Shown: positions 2,080 through 19,709 of the stretch, piece by piece
How the letters are laid out: every line of letters starts with the position of its first letter
Numbering within the stretch: position 1 is the first letter of the stretch
Source of the DNA: Escherichia phage Mimir124
Direction: 5' to 3' (one strand)
Length of the DNA stretch: 64,000 nt
Sequence record: PQ310662.1
Notes under the pieces: model-generated
Told to the model about the DNA's origin: nothing
Databases searched by the model: none
Seen by the model: the letters and a program-made list of their open reading frames with translations, nothing else
Made by a program: the position numbers and the translations under genes

Positions 2080-2556
2080 ATGAACTGGAATGACTTGTTC
2101 ACATACAGCAATGGTGCTCTTTACTGGAAAGTATCTAGAGGCCGTGCACTAGCTGGGGCTGTTGCCGGGAGTGTGGACAATAGTGGATACGTTAGAGTCA
2201 AATGCTTCAAAAAGATGTACTTGGTTCACCGTATAATCTATGAAATGGAAATCGGCCCAATCCCTGATGGCTACCAGGTAGACCATATTGACCATAACAG
2301 GTTAAATAACTACCCAAGTAACTTCCGTTTAGTCACCAATTTAGATAACTGCCGTAACCAAAAGAAAAGGATAACCAATTCTTCTGGTATTACAGGAGTC
2401 TATTGGCACTCCAGAGATGAAATATGGGCTGCTTCCATAAATGATAATGGTAAGCAAATTTATTTAGGAAAATTCCCTAGTAAAGAAGAAGCTGCTAAAG
2501 CCAGGAAAGAGGCTGAAAAGCTTATTGGTTACCATAAAAATCATGGAGCACCTTAA
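2080..2556 (+). CDS. HNH homing endonuclease with C-terminal AP2-type DNA-binding domain (copy 1)
   Basis: HNH_3-like motif YQVDHIDHNRLNNYPSNFRLVTNLDNCRN and AP2-like SSGITGVYWHSRDEIWAASINDNGKQIYLGKF..EEAAKARKEAE. Confidence 0.7.
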   Translation: MNWNDLFTYSNGALYWKVSRGRALAGAVAGSVDNSGYVRVKCFKKMYLVHRIIYEMEIGPIPDGYQVDHIDHNRLNNYPSNFRLVTNLDNCRNQKKRITNSSGITGVYWHSRDEIWAASINDNGKQIYLGKFPSKEEAAKARKEAEKLIGYHKNHGAP

Positions 2557-3731
2557 TGAATAACATACCTACACATACCCTTACTGATGAACAGTTAATG
2601 AGGGAGTACGACAGGATCCAAGCCAACGCATTTCTTGGACGCAGCGCAGCGTTTTTTGGTTCATTGCTGTGTAGTCTTAAGTTCTCATGGAAACGTGAGG
2701 ACTGTCCTACTGCATGTACCGATGGGATAGAACTCCATTTCAACCCAGACTTCTTTATCTGGATGTGTCCCGATGCAAGAGAAACAGTGCTAATGCACGA
2801 ACTCTGGCATGTGGCATATCTGCACGGCATCCGTTGTGGAAGCCGTGACCCGGAAGTCTGGAACCAGGCATGTGACCACTTCATCAACCTTCAGTTAGAA
2901 GAAGATGGTTACAAGTTCACTGGTATCGACAAAGGCATTTGCAAAGACCCTCAATATAAAGGATGGGTCGAAGAAGACATCTACGATGACCTGATGAAGA
3001 ACCCTCAGAAAAGGCAGAAGCCGTCAGGGGGTGCTGGAGCAGGTCTTGCTGGCGACATGAAAGCTCCCTCTTCGGGGCAGTCCCAGGGTGCTGTTGTCAA
3101 CAACGTAGTACGTGCAATGCAAAGCCAGAAGATGGCTGGTGGAATGATGCCCGGTAAAGGTGCTGGTCGTATGGAAGAGGTAATTACCCAATTCCTTAAA
3201 CCAGTGGTTCCTTGGCAGGAAGTCCTGCTGAACTTCTTTACCGACATTGATGACACACACTATACGTGGGCCAGACCTAATCGTCGTTTCACTGACATCT
3301 ATCTACCTTCTCTGGAAGATGATGAAGGACGCTTACGACACTTAGCTTACTTTGAGGATGTATCTGGTTCTATTAGTAGTGCTGACTCTCTGCGTTTTAA
3401 CTCAGAGGTTGCCTACGTTAAGAGCCAGTTCAATCCTAAGAAGATGACCCTTATTACCTTCGACGATATTATCCAAGAAGAAATAGACATCACTGAAGAA
3501 GATACTTTTGAAGAGATTAAGATTACCGGTCGTGGTGGTACAAACCTTGAACCAGTGCGTGAATGGATTATTAAGAATAAGCCAACCGCTGCAATCATAT
3601 TCTCTGATATGTATGTTAAACCAATGGAAGAATTACCATTTGATATCCCTATCATCTGGTGTGTTCTGAATAATCCCAATGCTACCGTACCTTTTGGGGA
3701 GGTAGTTCATATCCATAAAGGAATGAAATAA
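2556..3731 (+). CDS. VWA-domain protein with N-terminal HExxH metallopeptidase-like motif (partner of MoxR-like ATPase)
   Basis: HExxH (MHELWHVAYLH) in N-terminal part; MIDAS-like DxSxS (DVSGSIS) in C-terminal part; start overlaps the HNH stop. Confidence 0.5.
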   Translation: MNNIPTHTLTDEQLMREYDRIQANAFLGRSAAFFGSLLCSLKFSWKREDCPTACTDGIELHFNPDFFIWMCPDARETVLMHELWHVAYLHGIRCGSRDPEVWNQACDHFINLQLEEDGYKFTGIDKGICKDPQYKGWVEEDIYDDLMKNPQKRQKPSGGAGAGLAGDMKAPSSGQSQGAVVNNVVRAMQSQKMAGGMMPGKGAGRMEEVITQFLKPVVPWQEVLLNFFTDIDDTHYTWARPNRRFTDIYLPSLEDDEGRLRHLAYFEDVSGSISSADSLRFNSEVAYVKSQFNPKKMTLITFDDIIQEEIDITEEDTFEEIKITGRGGTNLEPVREWIIKNKPTAAIIFSDMYVKPMEELPFDIPIIWCVLNNPNATVPFGEVVHIHKGMK

Positions 3732-4237
3732 TGGTTGTTAACGGTAATTCTCTATATCGTTCGTCTCAATTGCTGGATGTACCAGACCGTAAGGTATCCG
3801 AGCATGGTGTAAGTTATGGGCTAGGTGAAGCCGGTTATGATATTCGTATCAAACAAGACATCACCTTCTATCGCTTATTTGGGTTGATTCCAATGGTGAA
3901 AATCGTTGATGGAAAACAAGTATCACGCCATCTCGGTAAATTCGCATTGGCTTCAGCAATTGAGAAGTTCAATATGTCCCCATCCTGTGTAGCTATCGTT
4001 CATGATAAATCCACATGGGCAAGACGTGCATTATCAGTATTTAATACCGTAATAGAACCAGGGTGGAAAGGTTGGCTTACTTTAGAGCTTGTCTACCATG
4101 GTCGTAAGAAATTGCATATCCCGGCTGGTTCTGGGATAGCTCAAGTATTATTTCATCTGGTTCAAGAACCTGCTAATTACAATGGCAAGTATATGAACCA
4201 GGAAAACAAACCAGTAGCTGCTAGACCTTCAAAATAA
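3731..4237 (+). CDS. dCTP deaminase / dUTPase-superfamily protein
   Basis: Motifs GEAGYDIRI and GWKGWLTLEL resemble dCTP deaminase signature regions; 168 aa. Confidence 0.45.
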   Translation: MVVNGNSLYRSSQLLDVPDRKVSEHGVSYGLGEAGYDIRIKQDITFYRLFGLIPMVKIVDGKQVSRHLGKFALASAIEKFNMSPSCVAIVHDKSTWARRALSVFNTVIEPGWKGWLTLELVYHGRKKLHIPAGSGIAQVLFHLVQEPANYNGKYMNQENKPVAARPSK

Positions 4238-4267
4238 AAGGCTATCCGGCTTAGTCAAGGAAACAAT

Positions 4268-4468
4268 ATGTCAGTATTTCAAGTAACTCCTGTTGGCAGT
4301 ACTATGCGTAAAACTATTGTTGCAACTAACGTAGTAGACGTAGATGAAACTCCGGCAGGTGCTGTAATTCGTCTGATTGATGGACGTTCAGTATATGTAG
4401 AAGAAAGTTATCGTTCAGTACGTGGTTATATTCGCAAAGCCATGACTACCGCTTCTGACGCAGAGTAA
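4268..4468 (+). CDS. hypothetical protein
   Basis: 66-aa ORF with RBS-like AAGGAAACA upstream. Confidence 0.35.
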   Translation: MSVFQVTPVGSTMRKTIVATNVVDVDETPAGAVIRLIDGRSVYVEESYRSVRGYIRKAMTTASDAE

Positions 4469-4505
4469 GTAGCTGCCTAAATAGCCCAGCATAATTGGGC
4501 TATTT

Positions 4506-4802
4506 GTGAAGAAACTAACTCAACCCTACATAGGAACCATCATGGAATCTTTAGCAGCAATCCTCGTTCTGTTATTCGCACTAGCTGTATACCTTATCCC
4601 TACTATTATTGCTTTTACACGAGGCCATGCCTCTAAGTGGGGTATTGGTGTACTCAATATCGTATTAGGCTGGTCTTTAGTCTTCTGGGTAGTAGCACTG
4701 ATTTGGTCACTGTCTAATAAAGGACAGTCTCAGACTACAATCGTTAACGTTGGTAGTGGTAATCAGTACAACGTGTCTCAAACGAGCCAGTCTGATAAGT
4801 AA
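4506..4802 (+). CDS. superinfection immunity-like small membrane protein (Imm family)
   Basis: Two TM helices and motif PTIIAFTRGHASKWGIGVLNIVLGWSLVFWVVALIWSLS matching the conserved core I recall for phage Imm proteins. Confidence 0.5.
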   Translation: MKKLTQPYIGTIMESLAAILVLLFALAVYLIPTIIAFTRGHASKWGIGVLNIVLGWSLVFWVVALIWSLSNKGQSQTTIVNVGSGNQYNVSQTSQSDK

Positions 4803-4877
4803 CTAACCTAAGCATCATTACATAGTGGTGCTTGCGGAAGTTACTTCCAGCTCATTGCTTATCCATCTCCTAATCCA

Positions 4878-4903
4878 AGCCCACCTAACCCGTGGGCTTT
4901 TTT
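4878..4903 (+). terminator. Rho-independent terminator
   Basis: AGCCCAC-ctaaccc-GTGGGCT followed by TTTTTT. Confidence 0.6.
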
Positions 4904-4919
4904 AATTACAGGTACTCGT

Positions 4920-5309
4920 ATGTCAAACAGACGAAATGGTAAGTCTATCTTGCAAGGGATGGACTTCGGTAAGCTGGAACAAACTGCAATGCTTACTTTA
5001 GGTAAAACTATGCACGACCTGGTGGAAAAGAATGGAATTAACTCTGATGTTTATGCAGCAATGCAGGTTCTTATTCAGAAAGGATGGACTACTAGTAGAC
5101 CTTTTAGCACCACTTCATACATTCCCCCAGAACCTCATCTGAAATCTAAGGTAGACCGAATCATAGATAAGTTCTGGGCATATCCAGGAGAAGGTCACAT
5201 GTACCTATACTTGGAGCAGTTACGAAAGAATCCCATTACTCGTGACTTGTTCAAGGGTAAAAGTACTACCCATCACTACCCCTGGTATAGAAGAGGTAGT
5301 AAATACTAA
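4920..5309 (+). CDS. hypothetical protein
   Basis: 129-aa ORF, compact spacing. Confidence 0.4.
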   Translation: MSNRRNGKSILQGMDFGKLEQTAMLTLGKTMHDLVEKNGINSDVYAAMQVLIQKGWTTSRPFSTTSYIPPEPHLKSKVDRIIDKFWAYPGEGHMYLYLEQLRKNPITRDLFKGKSTTHHYPWYRRGSKY

Positions 5310-5752
5310 TGCGTATCCCATTCCTAAGAAAAAGGGAACGAAATCCTGTTCTTTATAATAAAGGTATAGAGGATGAGTATGAACTCAACCGTAAAGCCCG
5401 TTCCTACACAACAAAATTATTTATGGGGACTAACAACCCTGATAGATTACTGGACTTTGTTTTTGAACAAGTCTTTATCATATACAGCTTAGCTATGTCT
5501 GCTGGTTCACAAGAAGTAAGTGATAAGGCAAGGGATGCTCTCTGTATGCTCCGTAAAGAGTATGAAGCCCTCCTGTATGAAGACTTGTACTCCTTTAAAA
5601 AAGAAACCGCTGTAGCGTGTTCTGTGGCTCTTACTGAAGGTATATCAGTATTACAGGAACTACCTCGTAGTGAGTTTAAGCTGGTATATGTTCAGGCCAG
5701 GAAGATTACAGAAAACCGTAGTGGTATTACTAACTATCTAAGGTCATTCTAA
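5309..5752 (+). CDS. hypothetical protein
   Basis: 147-aa ORF, start overlaps upstream stop. Confidence 0.4.
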   Translation: MRIPFLRKRERNPVLYNKGIEDEYELNRKARSYTTKLFMGTNNPDRLLDFVFEQVFIIYSLAMSAGSQEVSDKARDALCMLRKEYEALLYEDLYSFKKETAVACSVALTEGISVLQELPRSEFKLVYVQARKITENRSGITNYLRSF

Positions 5753-6696
5753 TGATTAAGGCAACTGTCATTGCAGATTCCGTTCATCATGCAACGGGTA
5801 CTCGTATTACTACCTTTGAATTGGTCTATCCCCGATTCATTCACAGTGAGTTTATGACTCACCGTGTGTTCAACCGCAATGCTTCAAGCAGTCGTGCTAT
5901 CCCCACATCTAAGTTCATCGAACAGGTTCGTAAGGAACCAGTGATGCCAAGTCACTGGGGCAAGAACCAGAAAGGTATGCAAGCAGATGAAGAACTCACT
6001 CCTATGGAGATTGAGGATGCTAAGTTTATCTGGGATAACGCTGCATCTGCTGCTGCTGTATATGCTGAACAACTCCGTCGTGGACAAGTACATAAGCAGA
6101 TTGTTAACCGTATTCTGGAACCATTCACGCATATCCGTGTAGTAGTAACTTCAACTAGCTGGGCTAATTTCTATGGCTTGCGTGACCATGAAGACGCTCA
6201 ACCAGAGATTCGTGAACTGGCCCAAGCAATGCGTAAGGCTCATAATGAAAGTGTTCCATCAAAACTCATGCAAGGACATTGGCATATGCCATATATCACT
6301 GCTAATGATCGTTTTGCTGCTTACGATTTCTGCAAACATCAACGAATTACTCGTGATGAACCAAGTGGTGCAGAAGTGTATGGACTACTTCTCAAAGTAA
6401 GTGCTGCACGTTGTGCCCGTGCTTCTTATAACAACTTCGAGGGGCGACCTTCTACTATTGAAGAAGACCTTGGCTTGTTCGCTAAGTTAGTGGAAGACCA
6501 GCCTATTCATGCTTCACCAACGGAGCATCAGGCTACGCCTATGAACCTTGGTGAGAAGTATGTGAATAACATGAACCCAGTTACCTGGGAACAAGGTGTT
6601 ACATCTATGGATAAAGAAGGAAATCTGTACTCAGGTAACCTGCTTCACTTTATCCAATTCCGTAAGTTAATTCCTGGTGAGACTATTACTGAATGA
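5752..6696 (+). CDS. thyX: FAD-dependent thymidylate synthase (ThyX-like)
   Basis: ThyX-like signature region HRVFNRNASSSRA (degenerate RHR-x7-S) and downstream DAQPEIRELAQAM; 314 aa. Confidence 0.45.
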   Translation: MIKATVIADSVHHATGTRITTFELVYPRFIHSEFMTHRVFNRNASSSRAIPTSKFIEQVRKEPVMPSHWGKNQKGMQADEELTPMEIEDAKFIWDNAASAAAVYAEQLRRGQVHKQIVNRILEPFTHIRVVVTSTSWANFYGLRDHEDAQPEIRELAQAMRKAHNESVPSKLMQGHWHMPYITANDRFAAYDFCKHQRITRDEPSGAEVYGLLLKVSAARCARASYNNFEGRPSTIEEDLGLFAKLVEDQPIHASPTEHQATPMNLGEKYVNNMNPVTWEQGVTSMDKEGNLYSGNLLHFIQFRKLIPGETITE

Positions 6697-6932
6697 AAAA
6701 ACTAGCCCTGTATGCAATGCTACTTAGTACCTTACTCACACTGACCTACGCATACAAAGTCGCCTTTGTCGTAGAAACAGATATGCAGTTCATTCGAGCT
6801 AGTATTCTGTTATTTGTAAGTGAGATTGGTTTGTGGTGTGTTTACTACTTTGCTCGTGACTATGAAGCTATTAAAGAGCATGATGAAGCAAAAGAACGTA
6901 TGAGACGTTTCGTTGAAGAAAATCGTAAGTAA
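6693..6932 (+). CDS. small membrane protein
   Basis: 79 aa, two hydrophobic segments, followed by terminator. Confidence 0.35.
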   Translation: MKKLALYAMLLSTLLTLTYAYKVAFVVETDMQFIRASILLFVSEIGLWCVYYFARDYEAIKEHDEAKERMRRFVEENRK

Positions 6933-6938
6933 ACCTAA

Positions 6939-6963
6939 GACCTCCCCCGGGAGGTCTTTTTTT
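6939..6963 (+). terminator. Rho-independent terminator
   Basis: GACCTCC-cccg-GGAGGTC followed by TTTTTTT. Confidence 0.65.
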
Positions 6964-6992
6964 GGTTTCAATTAACTCTTTTAGGAGGGCAT

Positions 6993-7205
6993 ATGCCTGC
7001 TAAATACCGTATCAAAGACACACCACTAATGTGTGAGGGTGAGAAAGGTGACATTGTATATGCCTGTATCCAAGACGATTTCAATGCTGCTCTGATGTTA
7101 ACCCAAATGACAAATACACTGCATGTATCAGTAACACTGGATCCTACCGGTGACTATCCATGCTTCCCTATCCCTGCCCACAACCTGGAGCAAATCCATG
7201 ATTAA
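6993..7205 (+). CDS. hypothetical protein
   Basis: 70-aa ORF with AGGAGGG RBS 7 nt upstream. Confidence 0.4.
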   Translation: MPAKYRIKDTPLMCEGEKGDIVYACIQDDFNAALMLTQMTNTLHVSVTLDPTGDYPCFPIPAHNLEQIHD

Positions 7206-7524
7206 TCCTGAAGTTATTCATAGTAAAACTGGTAAAGCTGTTCCACTCAGTGATATTGCAGTTACCGGTGATATTGCTGCTTGCCCAGCTAACATCGCCT
7301 CCCTATGTATGTGCATTGCTGCACTGGCAGAGGAACGTAAATTATGGCTGGAACCAAGCAAGGAGATGATTCAGGCTGGTTTAGCTGAAGTGCAGAATGT
7401 GCTTGATAACTGGGAAGATAACGGTCCGTTACCTTATGGTACGGTTAATGACATTACTGATGACATGGCATCAGATATGGCTGTATTCATCCTTCAAGCA
7501 ATGGCAGGTAAACGTAATGGCTAA
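7198..7524 (+). CDS. hypothetical protein (start chosen at internal ATG 7198; longest ORF begins 7150)
   Basis: Frame of the 7150..7524 ORF; ATG at 7198 avoids a 56-nt overlap with the upstream gene. Confidence 0.35.
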   Translation: MINPEVIHSKTGKAVPLSDIAVTGDIAACPANIASLCMCIAALAEERKLWLEPSKEMIQAGLAEVQNVLDNWEDNGPLPYGTVNDITDDMASDMAVFILQAMAGKRNG

Positions 7525-7735
7525 TGTAAATATCGCCTCAGAGAAAACGTATAGCATTCAGATCAATGGCTTAACAGAATAACAAGTCTTATTCCTAATG
7601 AATGCTTTTCAAAACAGTCCATTGGGTCACCACCCCAATGATGAACCGCTGGAAGAAGCTGAACTACGTAAAGCTATTTTTGATAAGTGTAAACAAGTAC
7701 TACTTTAAGCAACATTTAAACTGGAGAATAAATAA

Positions 7736-10303
7736 ATGTTAGTTGCAGATACCAATCAATCAGCCACTTCAGCGACACTGGGTGGCAAAGAAACAATTGC
7801 CTTTGGCATCTCTGATGACCCGGCATTCTTCCATGTATTAAGTACTTCCCTGTATAACAATCCTACTCTGGCAGTAGTCCGTGAGACTATCTGTAACAGT
7901 TGGGATGCTCATATTGAAGCAGGTAAGACTGATACTCCTATTCGTATCACTATTGATACAGACAACTTTATTACCTTCCGAGACTTCGGTAGCGGTATTC
8001 CAGATGAACTCATTGGTTCCATTTATGGTGTCTATGGTGCATCTACTAAGAAGTCCAACAGTAGTGTTACTGGTGGCTTCGGTCTGGGATGTAAATCCCC
8101 ATTCGCTTATACAGATAGCTTCCAGGTTACTTCATGGAACCAAGGAAAGATGTCTGTATATAACGTAGCTAAGGCTGCGATTGAGAATGATGGTAAACCG
8201 GGTATTGTTCCTATTGTTACCAATATTCCTACTGAGGAATCTGGTCTGGAAGTTAAATTCCAGTTAGGCAAGCATGATGTAAATACCTTCGTGCATTACA
8301 TCACATCAATTGTGTTTAACGGTGAGATTAAAGCTGAGCTTAGTATTCCTAAACTCGTTAAAACAGAAGAGGGTAACAGTATTCAGCAGGGTGATTACAC
8401 TCTACTGAATACACTGGGTATGTCATTTGAACCTGGTTCGTATGATATGTCTGATAGATGGTATCAAGGCTATATGGGTAGTAGTAACATATACGTTCGC
8501 TACGGTAACGTAATGTACCCAATAGTATCTAGCCCGGCTAGTGAAGAGGCTGTAGGGCTTATCCTCAACTTCATGAATATTATTGGTGCTTTTAATTTAG
8601 TAGTTCAGGCTGCACCAGACACCTTAGCTATTGCTCCTAGTCGAGAAACACTGTCTAACCAGAAGTTAACTGATGATGGTATTACTACTCTATGCGTAGA
8701 TTTAGTAGACCGTATGGAGAAAGAGATTAAGGCTAAGATTCCTGAAGCTATTAAACAGATTGAGGAATATGCCTCTGAATCCTCTACCCGTTTCTGGGAA
8801 TATCCATCATTCCTACTTGCCGTTACAGACAAAACTGTTCAACGCTATATGTCCTCTAGTTTGTGGGCTAAGCAACGTAAGCATCATATCAAGCACTGGC
8901 GTAACTTATCCAATAAGGCATTATTAGCTCGTCCTGAATATGCAGGTCTTAAGAAACTGTATGGTAAGGCTATGCGTGCTCTTAAGGATACTCGTGAAGA
9001 AAGTACATACTCCCCATTCCATGAATTAGTATATCGTCATCTGCACTTACCCCAGCTTGCTGCTTTAAAAGCTATAGGTATTAAGTGGTCTGGCTACATA
9101 GTGAACCAGGGTAACAGTGTTGACTTGGAGAAAGGTAAACTCGCTGACTACTTTAGAATATTCCATAACTCCCACCAGAGTATTGGCATATTCACTACCA
9201 AGAACGTTGTAGTTACTCGACGTTTGTCTGATTGTGCTGACTCTTTCTCATACTTCCCTGAATACAACAGAGGTGACTTGGAGCGTACAGCTTTTGTTCA
9301 CGTCGTTGGACCTAAGAAGGGTGCGGCAGAGGAAGCTGTAGCTAAGTTCACTGCTATGGGTTATCGGGTAATTGACCTTACTCAATACAATGAGTGGGAC
9401 AAACCAACTAACTTCCGTAGGGAACAGGCTAAGATAGCTGCTGAGAAACGAGCTAAGACAATAGCTACCAATAAAACCAAAGCAGGAGGTAAAACTAATG
9501 CTCTGATTTCATTGAATGCAGTTAATGGTACTACTATTGTACGGGATAAAAATGGTGATTGGTTATCTAAGCCTTATATTCAGAATGAGTTTGCTGACCC
9601 AAGCCGCCATGATAAATCTGGTTTCGTTGAAGTAGAGAAGCCAAAGTACTATGTACTGGCTAATCAGGTTGGTTCAGGTAGCCCAGTAACTGCCAGTATT
9701 GGAACCATGTGGAAATGGTATGAGTTATCTGATGAGATGAAAGCAGAGACTGTTGTCTGTCGTAATCAAATCGAAGCTAACAAGGCTAAACGACGAGGTG
9801 CTATCCACATTGATGATGTTCGCTTTAGTGAATTGATGTCAGTTATTACCAGTAAAGGCTTCAAGAAATATGTTACTGAACACCGCATCGGTATTCTGGA
9901 ATACGTAGGGCTGGATGACAGAGAGTATTGGGAAATCCTCGACATACTGGGTCTAACATTCAAACCATTACAGAATCTGATTTTTAAACCAGAATATGAA
10001 TGGGCATATGACTTTCTACGGAATCGCCCACTCAACAACAAAGAAAAACTTGTTGAAATGGGTTGTATTAAGTCAGTGAATGATTTAAAGCCATATGCAA
10101 GGATGGTTAACCCACGTAACCATAAGTACTATGAGATACTTAGTAGTTACAAAGAGTTATTCAGCTATAGCTGGAATAAAAATGACATCCTACAGACGCT
10201 GGACTTAGGTAGTTTGGTCAAACACCTTAAGAAGAATCCAGAGGATATTCCTGGGTTTAAGTCCCTCTACCGTAATCGTCTAAATAAACTGAAAGGTAAC
10301 TAA
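7736..10303 (+). CDS. rIIA: rIIA-like protein with N-terminal GHKL-type ATPase domain
   Basis: GHKL N-box ETICNSWDAH, G1 box DFGSGI, G2 box GGFGLG in first 120 aa; 855 aa; followed by rIIB-like gene. Confidence 0.5.
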   Translation: MLVADTNQSATSATLGGKETIAFGISDDPAFFHVLSTSLYNNPTLAVVRETICNSWDAHIEAGKTDTPIRITIDTDNFITFRDFGSGIPDELIGSIYGVYGASTKKSNSSVTGGFGLGCKSPFAYTDSFQVTSWNQGKMSVYNVAKAAIENDGKPGIVPIVTNIPTEESGLEVKFQLGKHDVNTFVHYITSIVFNGEIKAELSIPKLVKTEEGNSIQQGDYTLLNTLGMSFEPGSYDMSDRWYQGYMGSSNIYVRYGNVMYPIVSSPASEEAVGLILNFMNIIGAFNLVVQAAPDTLAIAPSRETLSNQKLTDDGITTLCVDLVDRMEKEIKAKIPEAIKQIEEYASESSTRFWEYPSFLLAVTDKTVQRYMSSSLWAKQRKHHIKHWRNLSNKALLARPEYAGLKKLYGKAMRALKDTREESTYSPFHELVYRHLHLPQLAALKAIGIKWSGYIVNQGNSVDLEKGKLADYFRIFHNSHQSIGIFTTKNVVVTRRLSDCADSFSYFPEYNRGDLERTAFVHVVGPKKGAAEEAVAKFTAMGYRVIDLTQYNEWDKPTNFRREQAKIAAEKRAKTIATNKTKAGGKTNALISLNAVNGTTIVRDKNGDWLSKPYIQNEFADPSRHDKSGFVEVEKPKYYVLANQVGSGSPVTASIGTMWKWYELSDEMKAETVVCRNQIEANKAKRRGAIHIDDVRFSELMSVITSKGFKKYVTEHRIGILEYVGLDDREYWEILDILGLTFKPLQNLIFKPEYEWAYDFLRNRPLNNKEKLVEMGCIKSVNDLKPYARMVNPRNHKYYEILSSYKELFSYSWNKNDILQTLDLGSLVKHLKKNPEDIPGFKSLYRNRLNKLKGN

Positions 10304-10307: not shown

Positions 10308-12356
10308 ATGAAAATCGAACTGATTTCTATCATCGCACTGGCAGTTGACAGTCGAAACCTCACACTGTGGAAGCCAGATGGCTCCACGGTTGTATATCCA
10401 CAAAGCGACCCACGGGTTGCTCGTATTGTATCTGAAGCACAGACTAAAGGTCTTGGCACTACCCAGGACCAAATAGAAGTAAACATTGCACCAGAAGTAG
10501 AACTTCGTACTGAATATCTGGAAGCAGAGAAGAACACCAACGGATTCGTCCGTTTCTTCAAGGTAGCTAAGGCTAAGCTAAAAGAGTTCTTCGAGGATGG
10601 TACAAGTGTTCAACCAGCCCGTATCATTTCAGATATTAAACTGGGTAATCCTACAAAGACTCTGGTGTCTAAAGCTATGGATACCTTCCTGGCTGGCCAG
10701 GCAAATGAACCAGAAGTAACGGTGGCAGATGGTTGTTACGACAAACGTGACAATCTGATGTGGGTTACTGGTTGGGATAAGGACCATAACCATCTTGCAC
10801 TGGTTCGTTTTATTAATGACGTACTGGGTTGGGGTTATGACCATACTAATCGCATCCTTGCACGGGAATGGCCTATTGGAATCCGTGCAGTATCCGATGA
10901 TGAAATGGGTGAGTTTGCTAAACAAGCCAAGCACATCAAAGGAGTACACATTGTATTCACCAGCCGTAAACATACCCCACCACCTTACATTGAAGTAGCT
11001 AAAACTACGAACCAGGATAAGCTGGCTGCTGCTTCTGAGAAGTTAGCTGCATTGGGTGCTATTAGTACCGATGACGCTAACTTCCACACTGAAGTGAAAG
11101 AAGATGAAGTGGTTGTTGCTGTTACCAACAATGGGGTTATCCCTGGAGTTGAGAACCTGCAACGTCACCTACGCCAATCTGCCAAACTGAAAGACTATAA
11201 GGGCTTTACTAAGTTCCTTGAGCGTCTGGCTCCGGTTATTAAAGACCGTTTGCACTCAGTGGAAGACTTGATGAAGTTCATGGAAACTGCTGAACTGCCT
11301 ATCGCTGATGATGGCTCTATCCTGTTCCTGAAACGCCTTAAGTTCCGGGGTACAGAAGACGGTAAACGTGTATTCGTTGACTGTCACTCAGGTAACATCC
11401 GTCAGTGGGTAGGCTGTAAAGTACAGGTACGAGAAGACCTGGTAGACCCTGACCGTCGTCAGGACTGCTCTAATGGCCTACACGTAGCATCCATGAGCTA
11501 TATCCGTAGCTTCGGTGGTAACGTAACTATCCTTGGTAAAGTAGCACCGGAAGATGTATTTGCTGTTCCTCAGTACAGCACCAATAAGATGCGTGTATCT
11601 GCATATCATATTATTGCTGAACTGCCGGAAGAAGAACGTAATAACGTTAACAATGGTATCTACCTGTCTAAGACAGAAGTAGGTAAAAAGTTGCTTAATG
11701 ATGCCATCGTTGGGAACCATAGTTCACCTACCACTCTTATTATGGTTGGTGGACATCGTGGTACTAACCTCAAATACACTAATCTTACATCTGGTTCTGT
11801 AGAACAATTCCGTACAGTTGCTAGTAAAGAAGCACTGAACATGGAAGAGTCACTGAATGAAGCCGTAGCTGCTGAACCAGTGAAGGCTACTGACCTTAAA
11901 CCTGTTATTAAGAAGGCTCCTACTGTGAAAGAACAAATCCAGGAACTGGTCAAAGAGTTCCTTAATGCAACAACCCCGGAAGATAAGTTAGCTGCTGCTG
12001 ACCTTCTGGTAGAACTGCGTTCCAAAGCCAGAAAGCCTTGGGGTGCATTCGACGTAGGTAGTGATGTAGTAGACGCTATTGCTACTATCCGTAGTACTCG
12101 TATTCCTGCACCTAAAGCTGTTAAGCAGGATAAGACAGTTAAACCTACACGTTCTGCTGCTGCCACTAAAGTAGCTCCGTCTGGTAAACACGCTGATAAT
12201 CTGCGTAGCATCCTGAACGATACGACGTACTCCGACTATCAGAAAGGCCATGCTCTGCAAGACTATAAGCGTCATGCTAAGAAGTCATTCACTGCAATGG
12301 GTCTGACTGAAGAAGAAGCTAAGTTAGCTACCAAGCTGGTTAAGGCTGCTAAGTAA
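10308..12356 (+). CDS. rIIB: rIIB-like protein
   Basis: 682-aa ORF immediately downstream of the rIIA-like gene; assignment by size and synteny only. Confidence 0.35.
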   Translation: MKIELISIIALAVDSRNLTLWKPDGSTVVYPQSDPRVARIVSEAQTKGLGTTQDQIEVNIAPEVELRTEYLEAEKNTNGFVRFFKVAKAKLKEFFEDGTSVQPARIISDIKLGNPTKTLVSKAMDTFLAGQANEPEVTVADGCYDKRDNLMWVTGWDKDHNHLALVRFINDVLGWGYDHTNRILAREWPIGIRAVSDDEMGEFAKQAKHIKGVHIVFTSRKHTPPPYIEVAKTTNQDKLAAASEKLAALGAISTDDANFHTEVKEDEVVVAVTNNGVIPGVENLQRHLRQSAKLKDYKGFTKFLERLAPVIKDRLHSVEDLMKFMETAELPIADDGSILFLKRLKFRGTEDGKRVFVDCHSGNIRQWVGCKVQVREDLVDPDRRQDCSNGLHVASMSYIRSFGGNVTILGKVAPEDVFAVPQYSTNKMRVSAYHIIAELPEEERNNVNNGIYLSKTEVGKKLLNDAIVGNHSSPTTLIMVGGHRGTNLKYTNLTSGSVEQFRTVASKEALNMEESLNEAVAAEPVKATDLKPVIKKAPTVKEQIQELVKEFLNATTPEDKLAAADLLVELRSKARKPWGAFDVGSDVVDAIATIRSTRIPAPKAVKQDKTVKPTRSAAATKVAPSGKHADNLRSILNDTTYSDYQKGHALQDYKRHAKKSFTAMGLTEEEAKLATKLVKAAK

Positions 12357-12582
12357 TGGTTAGCATTGATAAGGTGGATATACGGGAAGTAATCACACCC
12401 CTAAAGCAAACCGTTATAAGGATTTGTGTAAAGTACAACGGACACTTTGGTCAATTCTTTGAAGGCTTGTCTCTAGAAGATGCGATGAAAGAGTTCGGAG
12501 AATGGTATAAGAACCAGTCCTAGCCTGTTCAAAAGCCCTCACTTGTAATAAAGTGAGGGTAATTTTGAGGAGGAAATAAGCT

Positions 12583-12939
12583 ATGTCTAAAGTATTCAGA
12601 AGTAATCGCAAAGCAACTGATGAAGACATCATTCGCATGAATGCTGTTGGTCTGTCCCTCGCAACTATCGCTAAGACGTTGGGGGTTCACCCCACTACGG
12701 TTACACTTCGGCTACGTTCTTTGAATATAGAACCTGCGGATACAAGAAGAACCTTTATGGAAAATGTTCTAACTCCACTACCTACACCTATGATTGATTG
12801 GTTAGCTGAACAGCTCGGCCCTAAATATGAAATTAGGCAGTTTGTAAGGGATTTGCTGATAGATGCCTATAAGAATAGACAAGCAACAGACCTCCCTGCA
12901 CACATCCGTTACTTACGGGCATATGGGGGGGAAGAATAA
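12583..12939 (+). CDS. small helix-turn-helix DNA-binding protein
   Basis: HTH-like segment GLSLATIAKTLGVHPTTVTLRL; RBS GAGGAGG upstream. Confidence 0.4.
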   Translation: MSKVFRSNRKATDEDIIRMNAVGLSLATIAKTLGVHPTTVTLRLRSLNIEPADTRRTFMENVLTPLPTPMIDWLAEQLGPKYEIRQFVRDLLIDAYKNRQATDLPAHIRYLRAYGGEE

Positions 12940-12956
12940 TTTCCATAGAGGTACTA

Positions 12957-13436
12957 ATGCATAATTGGAATGAAATACTTACCTACTCTAACGGTAAGCT
13001 GTACTGGGCAATAAAACCGAAACGGGGTACACAAATAGGTGACCCCGTGGGAAATCCGAATAAAAACGGGTATTTACGTTTTCAATATAAAGGAAAACAT
13101 TATTTAGTCCACCGCATTGTGTGGGAAATGCACTATGGAGAAATACCCATGGGAATGCAGGTAGACCACATATGGCATAACAAGCTAGATAATAGGATAG
13201 AGAATCTTAGGTTAGTGACTCCTCTGGATAACCAGAGAAACAGAAGTAAAGCTCCAAAAAATACATCAGGAGTTACAGGTGTATGTTGGAGCAAACCAAG
13301 TGCTAAGTGGTTAGCGAGTATAACTGTTAAGGGTATTCGTAAACACTTAGGAATGTTTGACAATATAGAGGATGCTGCAAAAGCCCGTAAGCAAGCAGAA
13401 TTGCTTTACGGATTCCATCCTAATCACGGTAAATAA
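12957..13436 (+). CDS. HNH homing endonuclease with AP2 domain (copy 2)
   Basis: Same architecture as 2080..2556: NWNEILTYSNGKLYW, MQVDHIWHNKLDNRIENLRLVTPLDNQRN, SGVTGVCW..EDAAKARKQAE. Confidence 0.7.
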   Translation: MHNWNEILTYSNGKLYWAIKPKRGTQIGDPVGNPNKNGYLRFQYKGKHYLVHRIVWEMHYGEIPMGMQVDHIWHNKLDNRIENLRLVTPLDNQRNRSKAPKNTSGVTGVCWSKPSAKWLASITVKGIRKHLGMFDNIEDAAKARKQAELLYGFHPNHGK

Positions 13437-13438
13437 CT

Positions 13439-13891
13439 ATGAGTAATTCTTTAAACGATACGCTGGAAAACACACGGCAATGGTTTGAAATCGCAGTAGC
13501 GAATCCGACGAGTAAGAACATTAGTACCCAGATTGGTTGTCATCTGGAAGAAGTAGCTGAAATGCTGGAGACAATTAGTAGTATCTATAAAGATGACGCT
13601 AAAATACTTGCTTCCTTACACGATGCTATTAACTACGTAGCAGACCGTATTAAACAAAACGGTGGTATTGTTGTGAAAGACCCTATAGGACTTTTGGACA
13701 GCATTGCTGATCAGATTGTTACAGCAACTGGCGTCGGTACTTTCCTTGGGATGAATGTCCCTGGAGCATTGGCTGAAGTCAATCGCTCAAACTATTCCAA
13801 GTTCGAAGATGGGGAACCTATCTTCAACGAGAACAAGAAAGTCATGAAAGGGAAAGACTACACTCCCCCCGATTTATCACCTTACATCTAA
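13439..13891 (+). CDS. MazG-like nucleotide pyrophosphohydrolase
   Basis: EExxE-type motif (HLEEVAEMLE) and downstream acidic helix (LLDSIADQI) typical of phage MazG-like proteins. Confidence 0.45.
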   Translation: MSNSLNDTLENTRQWFEIAVANPTSKNISTQIGCHLEEVAEMLETISSIYKDDAKILASLHDAINYVADRIKQNGGIVVKDPIGLLDSIADQIVTATGVGTFLGMNVPGALAEVNRSNYSKFEDGEPIFNENKKVMKGKDYTPPDLSPYI

Positions 13892-13892
13892 C

Positions 13893-13913
13893 CCTCTACG
13901 GAGGGTTTTTTAC
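13893..13913 (+). terminator. Rho-independent terminator (short stem)
   Basis: CCCTC-tacg-GAGGG followed by TTTTTT. Confidence 0.5.
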
Positions 13914-13924
13914 TGGAGATTTAA

Positions 13925-15235: not shown

Positions 15236-15245
15236 GGGAGGGTAT

Positions 15246-15776
15246 ATGCCTCAGATTGGTTCAGCGACTATTGGTCAGGTTGCCAATAGTAGTGAGATAG
15301 TCAAGCACCTGTTCTTAGCAGAACTAGTTCGTCTTGATGGTGTGTTAAACGGTATCATTGATAAGAATGACTGTATCAATGGTGTAGATGTATCGGCTGG
15401 CTTCCTTCACCAAGGGGAGTTCTATCAGCGTTCCAACGCTACCAGACCCCCAACCTATGGAGAACGATTAACACTTAATCCAGAACTTTGGCCTGCAATG
15501 GACAAGTATCTGAAAGCCTCCAGTCGTCTGATTATGGAAGTACACCTTGTGAACCAGACTGTATATCGACTGGTTCGTGGTTGTATGTCCTATCAGGATG
15601 TACGTGATGCTTTACCTGAATGTCTGGTAGCACAAGACCAGACTGGTCAGTACAAAGAGCTACCACGTACTCGTGAAGCAGCTTGGACTCTTGCTGGTGA
15701 TGCTATGGCAATCAAACAGTATGAGAAGATTTTACCTTCTATTGAATACTATGCAGCTTCACATCTGATTTTCTAA
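15246..15776 (+). CDS. hypothetical protein
   Basis: 176-aa ORF between helicase and polymerase, RBS GGGAGGG. Confidence 0.4.
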   Translation: MPQIGSATIGQVANSSEIVKHLFLAELVRLDGVLNGIIDKNDCINGVDVSAGFLHQGEFYQRSNATRPPTYGERLTLNPELWPAMDKYLKASSRLIMEVHLVNQTVYRLVRGCMSYQDVRDALPECLVAQDQTGQYKELPRTREAAWTLAGDAMAIKQYEKILPSIEYYAASHLIF

Positions 15777-15785
15777 GGTAAAGCT

Positions 15786-18365
15786 ATGCGTTACATCACC
15801 TCTCAGGATACTGGTAAGTATCCTATTGCTATCCTCGGTCATCAAATCCGAAGGGAGGAGATGATTAAAACCTACCTGCTGCCTTATGACCTAAGCATGG
15901 AAGATTTCATCTTCCTTGAACTTCATTCTGCCCCTGGCAAGAAGAAAACTCCTGCAAGGGAGATTAAAGAGTTCATTCAGCAGGAACTACAACAAGTACT
16001 GGATGATGCAGAGACTCAGTACATTATCTGTACCGACTCTGACTACTTCAAAATACTGACTAAAGAAGCTAAAGCAGAGGCTAACCTCGGCTATGTTTGC
16101 GACTCAGTATGGGGTAAACAGAAGGTTATCTATACACCTAGCTACAGGCAGGTCTTTTATGACCCACCTGTGGTAAAAGCCAAGATTGCTCAGGGTATGG
16201 ATGCATTACTTAACCACATTCGTGGGCAGTATGCTGAACCAGGTCAGGGAATCATTGAGTTTGAAGCCTATCCAGATACACCCGAAAAGATTAAAGCCTG
16301 GCTAGACCAGTTGCTTGAGATGAATAAGCCTCTGGCTATAGACATCGAATCATTCGGTTTAAAGCACTATAACGCAGGCATAGGAACGATTACGTTCTGT
16401 TGGAGCAAGACACAAGGCATAGCCTTTAATGTGGACTACGAGCCAATTAAGGGGGCTACTGAGGCTCCTTATGGGCGTATTAACAGGAATGATGTTGTTC
16501 GTAACCTGTTGCGTGAGTTCTTCATTAAGTACACTCAACGGCAGATGTATCACAACATTAGCTATGACGTGTACATACTTATCTATCAGTTATTCATGGA
16601 TAACCTGATTGATACGGAAGGCTTACTACATGGCATGGATATCATGCTACGTAATTGGGACTGTACTAAGTTAATCACCTACCTGGCTACTAACAGTTGT
16701 GCTGGCAATCACCTTAGTCTGAAAGAACAGGCCCAAGAGTATGCTGGTAACTACGCTCAGGATGATATTAAAGACATTCGTCTTATTCCTAATGAGCAAC
16801 TGCTACGCTACAACCTCATTGATGGTTTGTGTACGTGGTACACCTACGAGAAGCACTGGGATACTCTCATTGCTGATGACCAACTGGATGTTTACAACAA
16901 CATCTTTAAACCAGCCTGTGAAGACATTATTCAGATGCAGTTAACCGGTATGCCCATGAATATGGAAACCGTTAACCAAGTAGCTGAAGAGATGGAAACT
17001 GACAGGAACCAGGCTCTGAAAACTATTCGTGAGTCTAAGCTCATGAAGAATTTCACCCTGATGCTTCGTCAGGAATGGGTAGATGATAAGAATGCTAAGC
17101 TCAAGAAGAAACAAGTAACACTTGCTGACTGTGACATCGAGTTTAACCCAAACTCTGGTCCACAATTACAAAAACTGTTATTTGATTATATTGGCTTACC
17201 AGTTCTTGGTCTTACTAAGAGCAAGCAACCTGCTACTGACGGTGACACTATTAAAGCACTGCGTACACATACGCAGAGTGAAGATGTTAAGGAACTGCTC
17301 AATGCACTTATCGACTATAAGCTCGTGGATAAGATTATCACTAGCTTCATCCCGGCTTTTAGAAATGCCCAACCTGGGCCAGATGGTTGGCACTACCTAT
17401 TCGGCAACCTCAATTTGGGGGGAACAGTTTCTGGTAGATTATCTGCCTCTGAGCCAAACCTGCAAACCATACCGTCTGGTTCTAAGTATGCCAAGAAGAT
17501 TAAGAAATGCTTCGAAGCACCACCAGGTTGGATATTTTGTGGACTGGACTTTGCGAGCCTTGAAGACCGTATCTCAGCTTTAACTACTAAAGACCCACAG
17601 AAGCTTAAGGTATATACCGATGGCTACGATGGTCACAGTCTCCGTGCATATGCTTACTTCGGTGAGCAGATGCCAGACATAGTAGATACTGTAGAATCCA
17701 TTAACTCCATTCAGCATAAGTACAAATCCTTACGTAGTGACTCGAAGGCTCCAACCTTCCTACTTACCTATGGTGGTACATATATGGGCTTAATGAAAAA
17801 CTGTGGCTTCTCTGAAGAGAAGGCTAAGACTACAGAGAAGCGTTATCACGACCTCTATGTGGTAAGTGATATGTGGGTTCAGGCTAAGCTAGACGAAGCT
17901 GCCAAAACTGGTTATGTTACTGCTGCATTTGGTTTGAGAGTGCGTACTCCTTTACTGGCTCAGGTATTACGTGGGACATGTAAGACTCCATATGAAGCAG
18001 AAGCTGAAGGCAGAACTGCTGGCAATGCCTTGGGGCAAAGCTGGTGTCTACTGAATAACCGTGCTGGTTCAGAGTTTATGCGTAAAGTCAGAGCCAGTGA
18101 GTTCAGGCTAGATATACGCCCTAGTATTCACATTCATGATGCACAGTACTTCATGATTCGTGACAACATGGATACCTTGCAGTACACGAACAAGCATTTG
18201 GTTGAAGCCGTTAACTGGCAAGACCATCCTGATATTGCTCATCCAGAAGTTGGTTTGGGCGGGGAACTATCCTTGTTCTACCCAACGTGGGCTAACGAGA
18301 TTGAGATTCCAAATCACGCTACCCCAGAAGAAGTTCATCAAATAATTCAAAAGGCATTCGCATGA
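15786..18365 (+). CDS. family A DNA polymerase with 3'-5' exonuclease domain
   Basis: Exo motifs AIDIESFGL and YHNISYDVYIL; pol motif A DFASLEDRI, motif B RSDSKAPTFLLTYGG, motif C HIHDAQYF; 859 aa. Confidence 0.8.
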   Translation: MRYITSQDTGKYPIAILGHQIRREEMIKTYLLPYDLSMEDFIFLELHSAPGKKKTPAREIKEFIQQELQQVLDDAETQYIICTDSDYFKILTKEAKAEANLGYVCDSVWGKQKVIYTPSYRQVFYDPPVVKAKIAQGMDALLNHIRGQYAEPGQGIIEFEAYPDTPEKIKAWLDQLLEMNKPLAIDIESFGLKHYNAGIGTITFCWSKTQGIAFNVDYEPIKGATEAPYGRINRNDVVRNLLREFFIKYTQRQMYHNISYDVYILIYQLFMDNLIDTEGLLHGMDIMLRNWDCTKLITYLATNSCAGNHLSLKEQAQEYAGNYAQDDIKDIRLIPNEQLLRYNLIDGLCTWYTYEKHWDTLIADDQLDVYNNIFKPACEDIIQMQLTGMPMNMETVNQVAEEMETDRNQALKTIRESKLMKNFTLMLRQEWVDDKNAKLKKKQVTLADCDIEFNPNSGPQLQKLLFDYIGLPVLGLTKSKQPATDGDTIKALRTHTQSEDVKELLNALIDYKLVDKIITSFIPAFRNAQPGPDGWHYLFGNLNLGGTVSGRLSASEPNLQTIPSGSKYAKKIKKCFEAPPGWIFCGLDFASLEDRISALTTKDPQKLKVYTDGYDGHSLRAYAYFGEQMPDIVDTVESINSIQHKYKSLRSDSKAPTFLLTYGGTYMGLMKNCGFSEEKAKTTEKRYHDLYVVSDMWVQAKLDEAAKTGYVTAAFGLRVRTPLLAQVLRGTCKTPYEAEAEGRTAGNALGQSWCLLNNRAGSEFMRKVRASEFRLDIRPSIHIHDAQYFMIRDNMDTLQYTNKHLVEAVNWQDHPDIAHPEVGLGGELSLFYPTWANEIEIPNHATPEEVHQIIQKAFA

Positions 18366-18667
18366 CTAAAAGTACTAAAGAAACCGTCGTCAAAAAATAT
18401 CATTGGATGGTGGCAGCACAGGTAATCTTCCAGCTTCCTAAAGCCGATGATGGTTCCCTGCTTACCATGAACACAATGCTGCTCACTGACGAACCTCATG
18501 TGACGTATAAAGATTTGGCCCGTGTCAATCACTCTCTGAAGATTAGTCTGGACCAGCGTTTTGATACTTCGGTTGACCTGAAAGACATTGTTTATCTGTC
18601 CATCAATAACCTGGGTCTGATGTCTGAACCAGAGTTCCAGGCAAACATGATTCCCAAGGGGGAATAA
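18362..18667 (+). CDS. hypothetical protein
   Basis: 101-aa ORF, start overlaps polymerase stop. Confidence 0.35.
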   Translation: MTKSTKETVVKKYHWMVAAQVIFQLPKADDGSLLTMNTMLLTDEPHVTYKDLARVNHSLKISLDQRFDTSVDLKDIVYLSINNLGLMSEPEFQANMIPKGE

Positions 18668-19140
18668 TGACTAAGCTCTCCGGCGGATTGAATAACTGGT
18701 ATGTAGTACCAATTAAGAACCCCCAACGGAAAGAGCAAGAGCCATACCAAGCAGAGTGTGAGGATATTATCCAAGCACTGGGCATGACCTTTGATGAAGG
18801 TTGTGCCTTTAAAGCTCTATGGCGAAACGCTGCTGCCCGTATGGGTAATGGTAAACCTGGAAACACTACAGTGTATGATTGTGAGAAGCTAGTTCATTAT
18901 GCTAATCGTCTACTTGCTAAAGCTTACCTTGATTCTAGGGATAGTGGTGAAGTAGTTAAGTTGGAAGAATCCTGTACCGATTGGGTTTACAGTAATGAAA
19001 GACCTTCCTTCATGCGTAAGTGGAAGAAGATTGAGTATGAGTACAAAAACCATTGTAAAACATACACATGCTTTTCGGGAGAACCACAGTTCCAGTCTAT
19101 CAATTGGGCAGATATTTACCGTTATAGGATTTTCTACTAA
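18667..19140 (+). CDS. hypothetical Cys-rich protein
   Basis: 157-aa ORF with several Cys (CEDI, CEKL, CTDW, HCKTYTC). Confidence 0.35.
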   Translation: MTKLSGGLNNWYVVPIKNPQRKEQEPYQAECEDIIQALGMTFDEGCAFKALWRNAAARMGNGKPGNTTVYDCEKLVHYANRLLAKAYLDSRDSGEVVKLEESCTDWVYSNERPSFMRKWKKIEYEYKNHCKTYTCFSGEPQFQSINWADIYRYRIFY

Positions 19141-19211
19141 TGAAAATAACCAACAACCATGATGTCTCACTGGCCCTGGCTGTATGGCTATTGCATGACG
19201 AGTAACTAATT

Positions 19212-19709
19212 ATGAAACAGAGGATTGCCCATGACAGGCTTTTACAGCTTGTTAGTTATGACCCTATTTCCGGGATTTTTACTCGTAGGAATACCGGAAA
19301 GGTATCCGGTTACCTAATGAAGAGTGGCTACATTCAACTTCGTGTGGATAGCGTGTTGTACTATGGGCATATCCTTGCATGGTTTTATGTGCACGGTGTA
19401 TGGCCTACGGATAGGATTGACCATAAGGACAATATACGCCATCACAACTGGATAGATAACCTCAGAGAAGCGACCCACAAGCAGAATAACCAGAGTGCTG
19501 TTTTATCTAAAACAAACACATCTGGGTTTAAGGGTGTCTCCTTTTCAAAGAGTATGGGTAAGTACAGAGCAACTATTTGGGTTAATAGCAAACCAATTAC
19601 ATTAGGTTACACAGATAACCCAATAGAGGCTGCTGTTCTCTACGATGAAGCTGCTGTAACTCATTATGGTGAGTTTGCCAAAACCAACAAACAATTAGGA
19701 CTGTTATGA
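19212..19709 (+). CDS. HNH homing endonuclease with AP2 domain (copy 3)
   Basis: DRIDHKDNIRHHNWIDNLREATHKQN (HNH) and SGFKGVSFSKSMGKYRATIWVNSKPITLGYTDNPIEAAVLYDEAA (AP2-like). Confidence 0.65.
   Translation: MKQRIAHDRLLQLVSYDPISGIFTRRNTGKVSGYLMKSGYIQLRVDSVLYYGHILAWFYVHGVWPTDRIDHKDNIRHHNWIDNLREATHKQNNQSAVLSKTNTSGFKGVSFSKSMGKYRATIWVNSKPITLGYTDNPIEAAVLYDEAAVTHYGEFAKTNKQLGLL

Follow-up and report, generated by a model that had tools for sequence, protein, structure and literature searches.

Three genes in the replication module of Escherichia phage Mimir124 (sequence record PQ310662.1; analysed as one stretch of 64,000 nucleotides (nt), called the window here, whose positions are used unless another record is named) are very probably free-standing, site-specific HNH homing endonuclease genes (HEGs) of the I-HmuI-like HNH_3 plus AP2 class, each with an insertion slot of its own. 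The genes, here HEG1, HEG2 and HEG3, are open reading frames (ORFs) on the plus strand with exactly the coordinates given by a first-pass annotation made from the letters of the window alone, and each is linked to a rewritten end of a neighbouring gene: the first ~50 nt of gp25, the tail of gp35 with the head of gp36, and codons 1-21 of gp42. No fourth homologue was found by phmmer among the ORFs of the 64-kb window. The three genes and their domains (positions in amino acids, aa) are as follows.

2080..2556, plus strand: HEG1, 158 aa; HNH_3 at aa 47-90 (nt 2218-2349), AP2 at aa 102-141 (nt 2383-2502).
12948-12951: Shine-Dalgarno sequence GAGG of HEG2.
12957..13436, plus strand: HEG2, 159 aa; HNH_3 at aa 49-94, sub-threshold AP2 at aa 104-143.
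19212..19709, plus strand: HEG3, 165 aa; HNH_3 at aa 50-94, sub-threshold AP2 at aa 104-148.

All three proteins matched the Pfam family HNH_3 above its gathering cut-off of 24.8 bits (HEG1 67.3 bits, E 9e-19; HEG2 74.5 bits, E 5e-21; HEG3 36.9 bits, E 2.7e-9) and also PHROG 99, 'HNH endonuclease', with E from 1e-60 to 1e-68. The AP2 family passed its gathering threshold of 33.3 bits in HEG1 (35.9 bits, E 9e-9) and stayed below it in HEG2 (18.1 bits, E 3e-3) and HEG3 (20.7 bits, E 5e-4). The HNH_3 plus AP2 architecture that the annotation had assigned to all three copies thus stands in full for the first and, for the other two, in its HNH_3 half with AP2 below threshold. The putative C-terminal AP2 domain of HEG2 rests on the 52% identity of this protein to HEG1, and HEG3 has 28% identity to either of them. 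The N-terminal signature W-N-(D/E)-(L/I)-(F/L)-T-Y-S-N-G-x-L-Y-W was present, as had been described, in copies 1 and 2.

AlphaFold models of HEG1 and HEG3 (predicted local distance difference test, pLDDT, 86.6 and 87.7) displayed a common topology of N-terminal beta hairpins, a beta-beta-alpha core and then a three-stranded sheet on a helix. Foldseek ranked I-HmuI (PDB 1U3E) first for both models (HEG1, E 1.6e-4; HEG3, E 1.8e-3 with a root-mean-square deviation (rmsd) of 3.0 A over 91 columns), followed by the plant AP2 domains of TEM1 and ERF1, on which both models were superposed with an rmsd of 1.5-2.8 A and a probability of 1.00. AP2 is a DNA-binding domain common to plant and apicomplexan transcription factors. 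I-HmuI was also the sole significant match to a PDB sequence (E 4e-5). HEG1 residues D68, H69, N81 and N90 align to I-HmuI D74, H75, N87 and N96, which structural work reportedly identified as the catalytic and metal-binding residues of the beta-beta-alpha-metal motif, and these positions were invariant across the three window copies and 25 homologues. With the Asp-His, Asn and Asn kept, all three proteins are classed as putative HNH_3, I-HmuI-like HNH endonucleases, and the I-HmuI-like fold of the models suggests that they may nick DNA.

The first 22 kb of the window were matched by 53 phage records over at least 80% of the length at ~91-93% identity, all of them G7C-like N4-family coliphages (genus Gamaleyavirus, Schitoviridae). 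By sequence similarity the window is assigned to this genus, with ~92% identity to G7C. Gene order was as in G7C and N4 (gp24 ATPase, gp25 VWA-like, dCTP deaminase, thymidylate synthase, rIIA, rIIB, gp35, gp36, helicase, DNA polymerase, gp40, gp41, gp42 exonuclease, primase), and HEG1, HEG2 and HEG3 all lie within this replication module, between gp24 and gp43.

Each HEG was searched against 50,697 phage records, and no record carrying all three was found among them. Precise empty sites at all three slots were present in PhAPEC7, PhAPEC5, IME11, PE007 and AN24P2, and the N4 numbering treats gp24.1 and gp41.1 as extras. At site 1 most Gamaleyavirus records were without an insert, the exceptions being G7C, four UE phages and the Bp4 group, together with Moonfish and its decayed copy; full-length relatives of HEG1 were confined to G7C (gp24.1) and the four UE phages at 74-75% DNA identity, with a more distant variant in Bp4, PD38 and Uz-1. 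Site 2 was filled in two records, K57alpha1.2 and NAN33P5 (68% DNA and 72% aa identity to HEG2), and site 3 in 12 records at 91-98% identity to HEG3, the best match being G7C gp41.1 with 98.2% DNA identity. Metagenome contigs contained relatives of HEG1 at 99%, 82% and 58% in the same slot, and two of them held a 91% identical relative of HEG2 in the same slot and arrangement. All three genes are insertion polymorphisms. This supports the mobile-endonuclease invasion suggested by the first-pass annotation, which would have been contradicted by homologous genes at identical positions in all relatives; the sites proved polymorphic instead. A terminase-associated HNH protein (an HK97 gp74-like packaging factor) was also considered as an identity for these genes and was rejected owing to their location in the replication module and their absence from most relatives.

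At site 1 the following features surround the insertion.

1020..2072, plus strand: gp24 AAA ATPase (Pfam AAA, E 6.6e-6), counterpart of G7C gp24 and upstream neighbour of site 1.
2080..2085, plus strand: captured start ATGAAC, the gp25 start in empty alleles and the HEG1 start here, from junction alignments.
2556..3731, plus strand: gp25 (DUF2201_N and VWA-like DUF2201), its ATG overlapping the HEG1 stop (TAATG).
2562..2603, plus strand: recoded block at the gp25 5' end, HEG-linked and the likely target region of HEG1; divergence is raised across 2556-2645.

The two neighbours are those named by the annotation, an ATPase of the AAA family upstream and a VWA-like protein (DUF2201_N and DUF2201) downstream. 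With a slash marking the junction, the empty allele reads ...TAATCACAACATGAAC/CAGATACCT and the window ...TAATCACATCATGAAC/TGGAATGAC; the layout TAA-TCACAAC-ATGAAC/CAGATACCT of the empty allele is replaced by ATGAAC/TGGAAT in the window, and the HEG1 stop overlaps a new gp25 start at TAATGAAT. Compared to empty alleles, gp25 had 23-38 mismatches in its first 90 nt and then 0-3 per 30 nt, and divergence was not raised at the 3' end of gp24. Seven HEG-carrying alleles (window, G7C, UE-S5a, Bp4, Moonfish and two metagenome contigs) were separated from eight HEG-less alleles by eight alignment columns, defined as columns with no nucleotide common to the two groups, and all eight fell in gp25 nt 7-48 of 1170. 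Bas96 lacks the HEG, has the original first 50 nt of gp25 and is window-like beyond them, which marks a breakpoint.

Decay was also observed among relatives. In the Shigella phage Moonfish (locus L011, 2052-2500) the site-1 HEG is a decaying copy truncated by a 31-nt internal deletion, and the gp25 head of this phage is kept in the window-type recoded form (94.7%). Possible frameshifts were seen in the HEGs of Bp4 and NAN33P5.

At site 2 the insertion is a block that includes both gene ends.

12583..12939, plus strand: gp35 (weak helix-turn-helix match), C-terminus shortened and rewritten, 118 aa against 131 aa in empty alleles.
12881..13463, plus strand: site-2 cassette, 583 nt in place of 46 nt, made up of a new gp35 tail, HEG2 and a new gp36 head.
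13439..13891, plus strand: gp36, beginning 2 nt past the HEG2 stop.
13890-13907: terminator-like hairpin that closes the unit after gp36.

The limits of this cassette were set by an alignment of 11 alleles and by frame analysis. The empty alleles have a 77-nt overlap of gp35 and gp36, which are read in different frames there, and this overlap is gone in the window. In K57alpha1.2 and NAN33P5 the block likewise replaces 46 nt of the gp35/gp36 region and the two genes do not overlap. For the neighbours of this copy the annotation had proposed a helix-turn-helix protein and a MazG-like protein; the helix-turn-helix match of gp35 was weak and sub-threshold, and gp36 had no Pfam match, while RefSeq calls its G7C counterpart an NTP pyrophosphohydrolase family protein. 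A sigma-70 and terminator scan around HEG2 detected, other than the shared terminator past gp36, no promoter or terminator of its own above the expectation from shuffled sequence, N4-type promoters lying outside the scan. Upstream of gp35, at 12356-12523 between rIIB and gp35, a 55-aa ORF was found that is present only in IME11, K57alpha1.2, NAN33P5 and one metagenome contig (L017) and absent from G7C, PhAPEC7 and others.

Site 3 contains two copies of the beginning of gp42.

18667..19140, plus strand: gp41, directly upstream of site 3; a separate mosaic module makes up its 3' half.
19140..19205, plus strand: gp42 stump, the original first 21 codons (MKITNNHDVSLALAVWLLHDE) followed by TAA.
19706..19768, plus strand: recoded gp42 codons 1-21 (MKLTNNHDVSLALAVWLVTDD), supplied by the cassette and in frame with the rest of gp42.
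19706..20686, plus strand: gp42 exonuclease (weak PD-(D/E)XK match), its ATG overlapping the HEG3 stop (ATGA).

Where site 3 is empty, the stop codon of gp41 and the start codon of gp42 overlap. The stump protein equals the N-terminus of gp42 in those alleles, the same stump is found in G7C and Bp4, and HEG3 begins 6 nt past its TAA, so that the cassette spans 19203-19768 at the boundary of gp42 codons 21 and 22. The Cas4-like nuclease that the annotation had placed downstream is gp42, for which the PD-(D/E)XK match was weak and sub-threshold. Recoded copy and stump are distinguished by 20 of 63 nt and by four amino-acid changes, and each of the 17 fixed differences between HEG3-carrying and original alleles fell within gp42 nt 6-63 of 975. 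A recoded gp42 head (at least 87% identity) was found in the 12 HEG3-carrying records and in K57alpha1.2 and NAN33P5, out of 71 records, the others having 74-81%.

The gp42 genes of K57alpha1.2 (locus L003, ~19405) and NAN33P5 (locus L006, ~21377) have no HEG3 and carry the recoded head from ~nt 12. From their sequences they are candidate resistant alleles left after loss of the HEG. Either the two 63-nt copies underwent exchange and the HEG was lost in the process, or these alleles may represent the allele type in which the cassette first formed. DNA downstream of HEG3 was 96-98% identical to G7C, and the HEG3-lacking PhAPEC7, K57alpha1.2 and NAN33P5 were similar to the window there (94-99%). 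A long co-conversion tract 3' of HEG3 was considered and rejected, the HEG3-less phages being similar as well and no tract showing past the 63-nt block.

Upstream, the 3' half of gp41 (18920-19120) occurs among relatives as two allele types that are ~50% different, and the type is independent of the presence of HEG3. The window type resembles IME11, K57alpha1.2 and AN24P2 and is unlike G7C and PhAPEC7. HEG3 and the DNA downstream of it match G7C at 97-98% identity, in contrast to the 3' half of gp41 next to the cassette, which is ~50% different from G7C and IME11-like. This breakpoint between gp41 and the HEG3 cassette indicates that the cassette sits on a different upstream backbone.

Since removal of 19203-19768 would restore an in-frame gp42, we asked how well the genes could be explained as intron-encoded endonucleases, for example with the 566-nt insert spliced out to rejoin the stump. 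Relatives do hold group I introns with HNH ORFs in their DNA polymerase and ATPase genes. An Rfam scan found no intron in the window and no group I signal at E <= 1 in the three HEG regions, and the same scan recovered group I introns in the positive controls PhAPEC7 (E 6e-8) and NAN33P5 (E 7e-7). Outside the HEG ORF the site-3 insert has just 9 nt and 59 nt; moreover, codon-by-codon homology to gp42 persists in the 3' 63 nt, where most changes are synonymous, and this stretch is hence translated, and the ATGA, TAATG and 2-nt junctions leave the downstream ORFs complete with no need of splicing. Together these points make an intron origin hardly credible. HEG1, HEG2 and HEG3 are free-standing and not intron-borne, and their neighbouring genes are complete ORFs. 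Being free-standing, they have HEG-less alleles as the right test substrates for cleavage, rather than the intron-less or intein-less alleles that the annotation had named. The junctions to the downstream gene (TAATG for gp25, a 2-nt gap for gp36, ATGA for gp42) point to translational coupling of each HEG to that gene, and with such coupling the HEGs would not be polar.

The introns of the relatives lie in other genes of the module. A group I intron with an HNH ORF interrupts the DNA polymerase gene of PhAPEC7 (locus L002, 16759-17462) and PhAPEC5 (locus L010, 16878-17581), and the window DNA polymerase is the intron-less allele at the corresponding position, 17458. Two inserts of ~870 nt were present in gp24 of NAN33P5 (locus L006, 2415-3296 and 3631-4494, equivalent to window 1334/1335 and 1668), with Rfam group I intron signals of E 7e-7 and 0.07, and one of them has an HNH ORF. 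On one metagenome contig (L014) gp24 is split by an ORF with NUMOD4 and HNH_3; in the window gp24 is uninterrupted.

The three genes had been called paralogous, and this holds at the level of the family. As true recent paralogues, generated by duplication and transposition within this genome, they would account for their common architecture and for the N-terminal signature of copies 1 and 2. The first two copies are, however, just 52% identical and each has nearer counterparts at its own position (99%, 82% and 77% for HEG1; 91% and 72% for HEG2), and HEG2 is nearer to a HEG of a Salmonella phage (61%) than to HEG1. In a neighbour-joining tree the genes clustered by insertion site, with HEGs of unrelated phages placed between the groups, including between HEG1 and HEG2. 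This clustering by site indicates three independent lineages rather than duplicates from this genome, and duplication within it is extremely unlikely. A target sequence common to the three empty sites, which could be expected had HEG1 and HEG2 changed places through ectopic homing, received no support, the local alignments giving p = 0.32, 0.06 and 0.52 against 500 shuffles; the best match between sites 1 and 2 (ATAATCACAACATGAACCA and ATAATCGCCACCTTAACCA) spans both junctions and was non-significant.

HEG3 is nearest in the tree to a gene of PhAPEC5 located between gp42 and the primase. This is gp49 (locus L010, 20179-20751), an HNH gene with 51.5% aa identity to HEG3, and its slot is vacant in the window at ~20686. 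Weak DNA matches suggest relatives of gp49 in PBM-2, PBM-3, UE-M6 and ZQ2.

The ratio of nonsynonymous to synonymous divergence (dN/dS) was 0.07-0.08 for HEG3 compared to G7C and Bp4, 0.10 for the site-1 HEG between G7C and UE-S5a, and 0.04-0.07 for the flanking genes, pointing to purifying selection on HEG3 and on the site-1 HEG of G7C and the UE phages. Between HEG1 and G7C gp24.1, dN was 0.16 and dS was saturated, against a dS of 0.20-0.23 in the adjacent gp24 and gp25; dS was likewise saturated between HEG2 and its K57alpha1.2 counterpart, the flanks having an overall dS of 0.20-0.30. For HEG1 and HEG2 dN was only 0.13-0.21, and no dN/dS ratio could be computed owing to the saturation. Saturated dS in HEG1 and HEG2 compared to low dS in the flanks indicates a HEG history far deeper than that of the backbone, and sites 1 and 2 appear to be held, or to have been re-invaded, by anciently diverged lineages. 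The invasion had been described as recent. That description fits HEG3 (98% to G7C gp41.1) and does not fit HEG1 and HEG2, with 67-75% DNA identity to their counterparts and saturated synonymous sites.

The same data bear on whether the window copies still function. The decay in relatives, namely the deletion in Moonfish and the possible frameshifts in Bp4 and NAN33P5, would be in keeping with inactive relics that no longer cut and are drifting to loss. Such a state is very unlikely for the window copies, which have full-length ORFs, invariant catalytic residues, confident models and a dN far below dS. Intact frames, a dN/dS of 0.07-0.10 similar to that of neighbouring essential genes and the persistence of deep lineages at the same slot could instead be read as domestication, the genes being accessory nucleases or DNA-binding proteins that are no longer selfish and serve in the exclusion of co-infecting relatives, in the cutting of host DNA or in AP2-based regulation. 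The authors of PMC10448857 moreover warn that homing is not inferable from sequence alone. Most close relatives, however, lack the genes at every slot and decayed copies exist; the HEG-linked recoded target blocks are predicted by homing and unneeded for housekeeping; and competitor exclusion uses the same cutting as homing, hence it is not a separate mechanism. Domestication is an improbable explanation, if somewhat less so than the relic state.

Under the preferred interpretation, site-specific homing, the enzyme would in a mixed infection nick or cut the HEG-less allele in or beside the segment that differs, the predicted cut regions being gp25 nt 1-50, the gp35/gp36 overlap and the gp42 codon 21/22 junction. 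The break would be repaired by recombination from the HEG-carrying genome, so that HEG and recoded segment are copied together, as in intronless homing with co-conversion. The recoded segment would then render the carrier allele uncuttable, and at site 3 the recoding may also reduce the homology of the 63-nt copies, which otherwise favours deletion of the HEG. The decay in Moonfish and the HEG-less recoded alleles of K57alpha1.2 and NAN33P5 could represent later stages of one cycle. Intronless homing, co-conversion and marker exclusion have been described (PMC2988022).

Several points weigh against this interpretation. The AP2 domain is under the Pfam threshold in HEG2 and HEG3, and we found no report of nuclease activity, of a cleavage site or of biased inheritance for any Gamaleyavirus HEG. 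At sites 1 and 2 the strong divergence of the counterparts makes long residence as likely as recent invasion. Mosaicism runs throughout the genus, and ordinary recombination could account for some of the patchiness. The recoded blocks could be old sequence that travels with the HEG and was not selected for immunity. In T4, the cleavage sites of free-standing HEGs are often hundreds of bp away from where the gene is inserted (PMC2988022), and with such remote cutting the target may fall outside the proposed blocks.

The strength of the mosaicism is apparent from the window itself, in which identity to individual relatives fluctuates from ~66% to 100% over blocks of a few hundred nt (4250-7700 and 8250-10250) and K57alpha1.2 is 100% identical over parts of rIIA. 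From these patterns the genus Gamaleyavirus appears strongly mosaic. In the K57alpha1.2 record (OY979416.1) the names virion RNA polymerase, portal and capsid are laid over the replication module; this annotation is apparently out of register with the sequence and was left unused for that reason. A single tRNA gene was detected in the window at 27094-27167 on the plus strand (Rfam, 62.6 bits).

HNH plus AP2 is a recognised class of HEG (PMC10448857), and HEGs have been noted among the variable loci of G7C-like phages (bioRxiv 10.1101/542787). The closest known counterparts are gp24.1 and gp41.1 of G7C, annotated as HNH homing endonucleases, which occupy the same slots (gp24/gp25 and gp41/gp42) and display the same cassette anatomy of captured gp25 start, gp42 stump and recoded head. 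They differ in that HEG1 has 77% aa and 74% nt identity to gp24.1 and in that G7C is without a site-2 HEG. HEG3 is essentially a known gene, and HEG1 and HEG2 are new diverged members. The site-1 slot was already known, whereas the site-2 slot was annotated in none of the records searched, and a limited literature search found no description of the cassette anatomy.

I-HmuI of Bacillus phage SPO1 (PDB 1U3E), an HNH nicking enzyme, shares the N-terminal beta hairpins and the beta-beta-alpha-metal core; its gene lies within a group I intron and its C-terminal region is a helix-turn-helix, whereas the window proteins are free-standing with AP2. The T4 genes SegF, SegG and MobE likewise are free-standing between conserved genes and patchily distributed, and are inherited with co-conversion of their flanks (PMC2988022, PMC2790892); homing was demonstrated by experiment in T4, whereas for the window it is inferred. 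SegF and SegG are of the GIY-YIG type and MobE is an HNH enzyme without AP2, and cleavage in T4 is often far from the insert, whereas the HEG-linked differences in the window abut it. HNH-AP2 HEGs of phages, cyanobacteria and protists, including IPA-HNH of ICP1, also combine an N-terminal HNH with a C-terminal AP2 and lie near essential phage genes (PMC10448857); the HNH of ICP1 IPA-HNH is too diverged for Pfam HNH_3, which the window proteins match strongly. HNH proteins of T1-like and other enterobacterial siphophages (TLS EndZ, T1, LPST10, STP-SP5) belong to PHROG 99 with 50-61% aa identity and local DNA identity of 70-78%, but they occur in other genomes and at other insertion sites and form separate clades in the tree.

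The anatomy of the cassettes is observed, and the recoding may have been selected for immunity. We put forward, tentatively and as less probable than its contrary, that each HEG is a self-immunising cassette which carries a recoded end of its target gene and edits essential replication genes while it spreads. The predicted target windows are narrow, ~50-60 nt each, making the recognition sites of three AP2-type HNH enzymes testable; to our knowledge there is almost no biochemistry for this class. The three sites are mainly a worked example: intronless homing can be followed in three independent natural experiments, for which sequenced relatives supply empty, filled, decayed and putatively resistant alleles. 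For phage genomics and therapy, the genes should be treated as selfish insertions and as hot spots of exchange between co-infecting Gamaleyaviruses, outside the core replication machinery. If the self-immunising reading is true, alleles of the K57alpha1.2 type would be resistant survivors of the cycle, and the N- and C-terminal sequences of gp25, gp35/gp36 and gp42 across the Gamaleyaviruses, along with their overlap architecture, would be determined by HEG invasion instead of drift.

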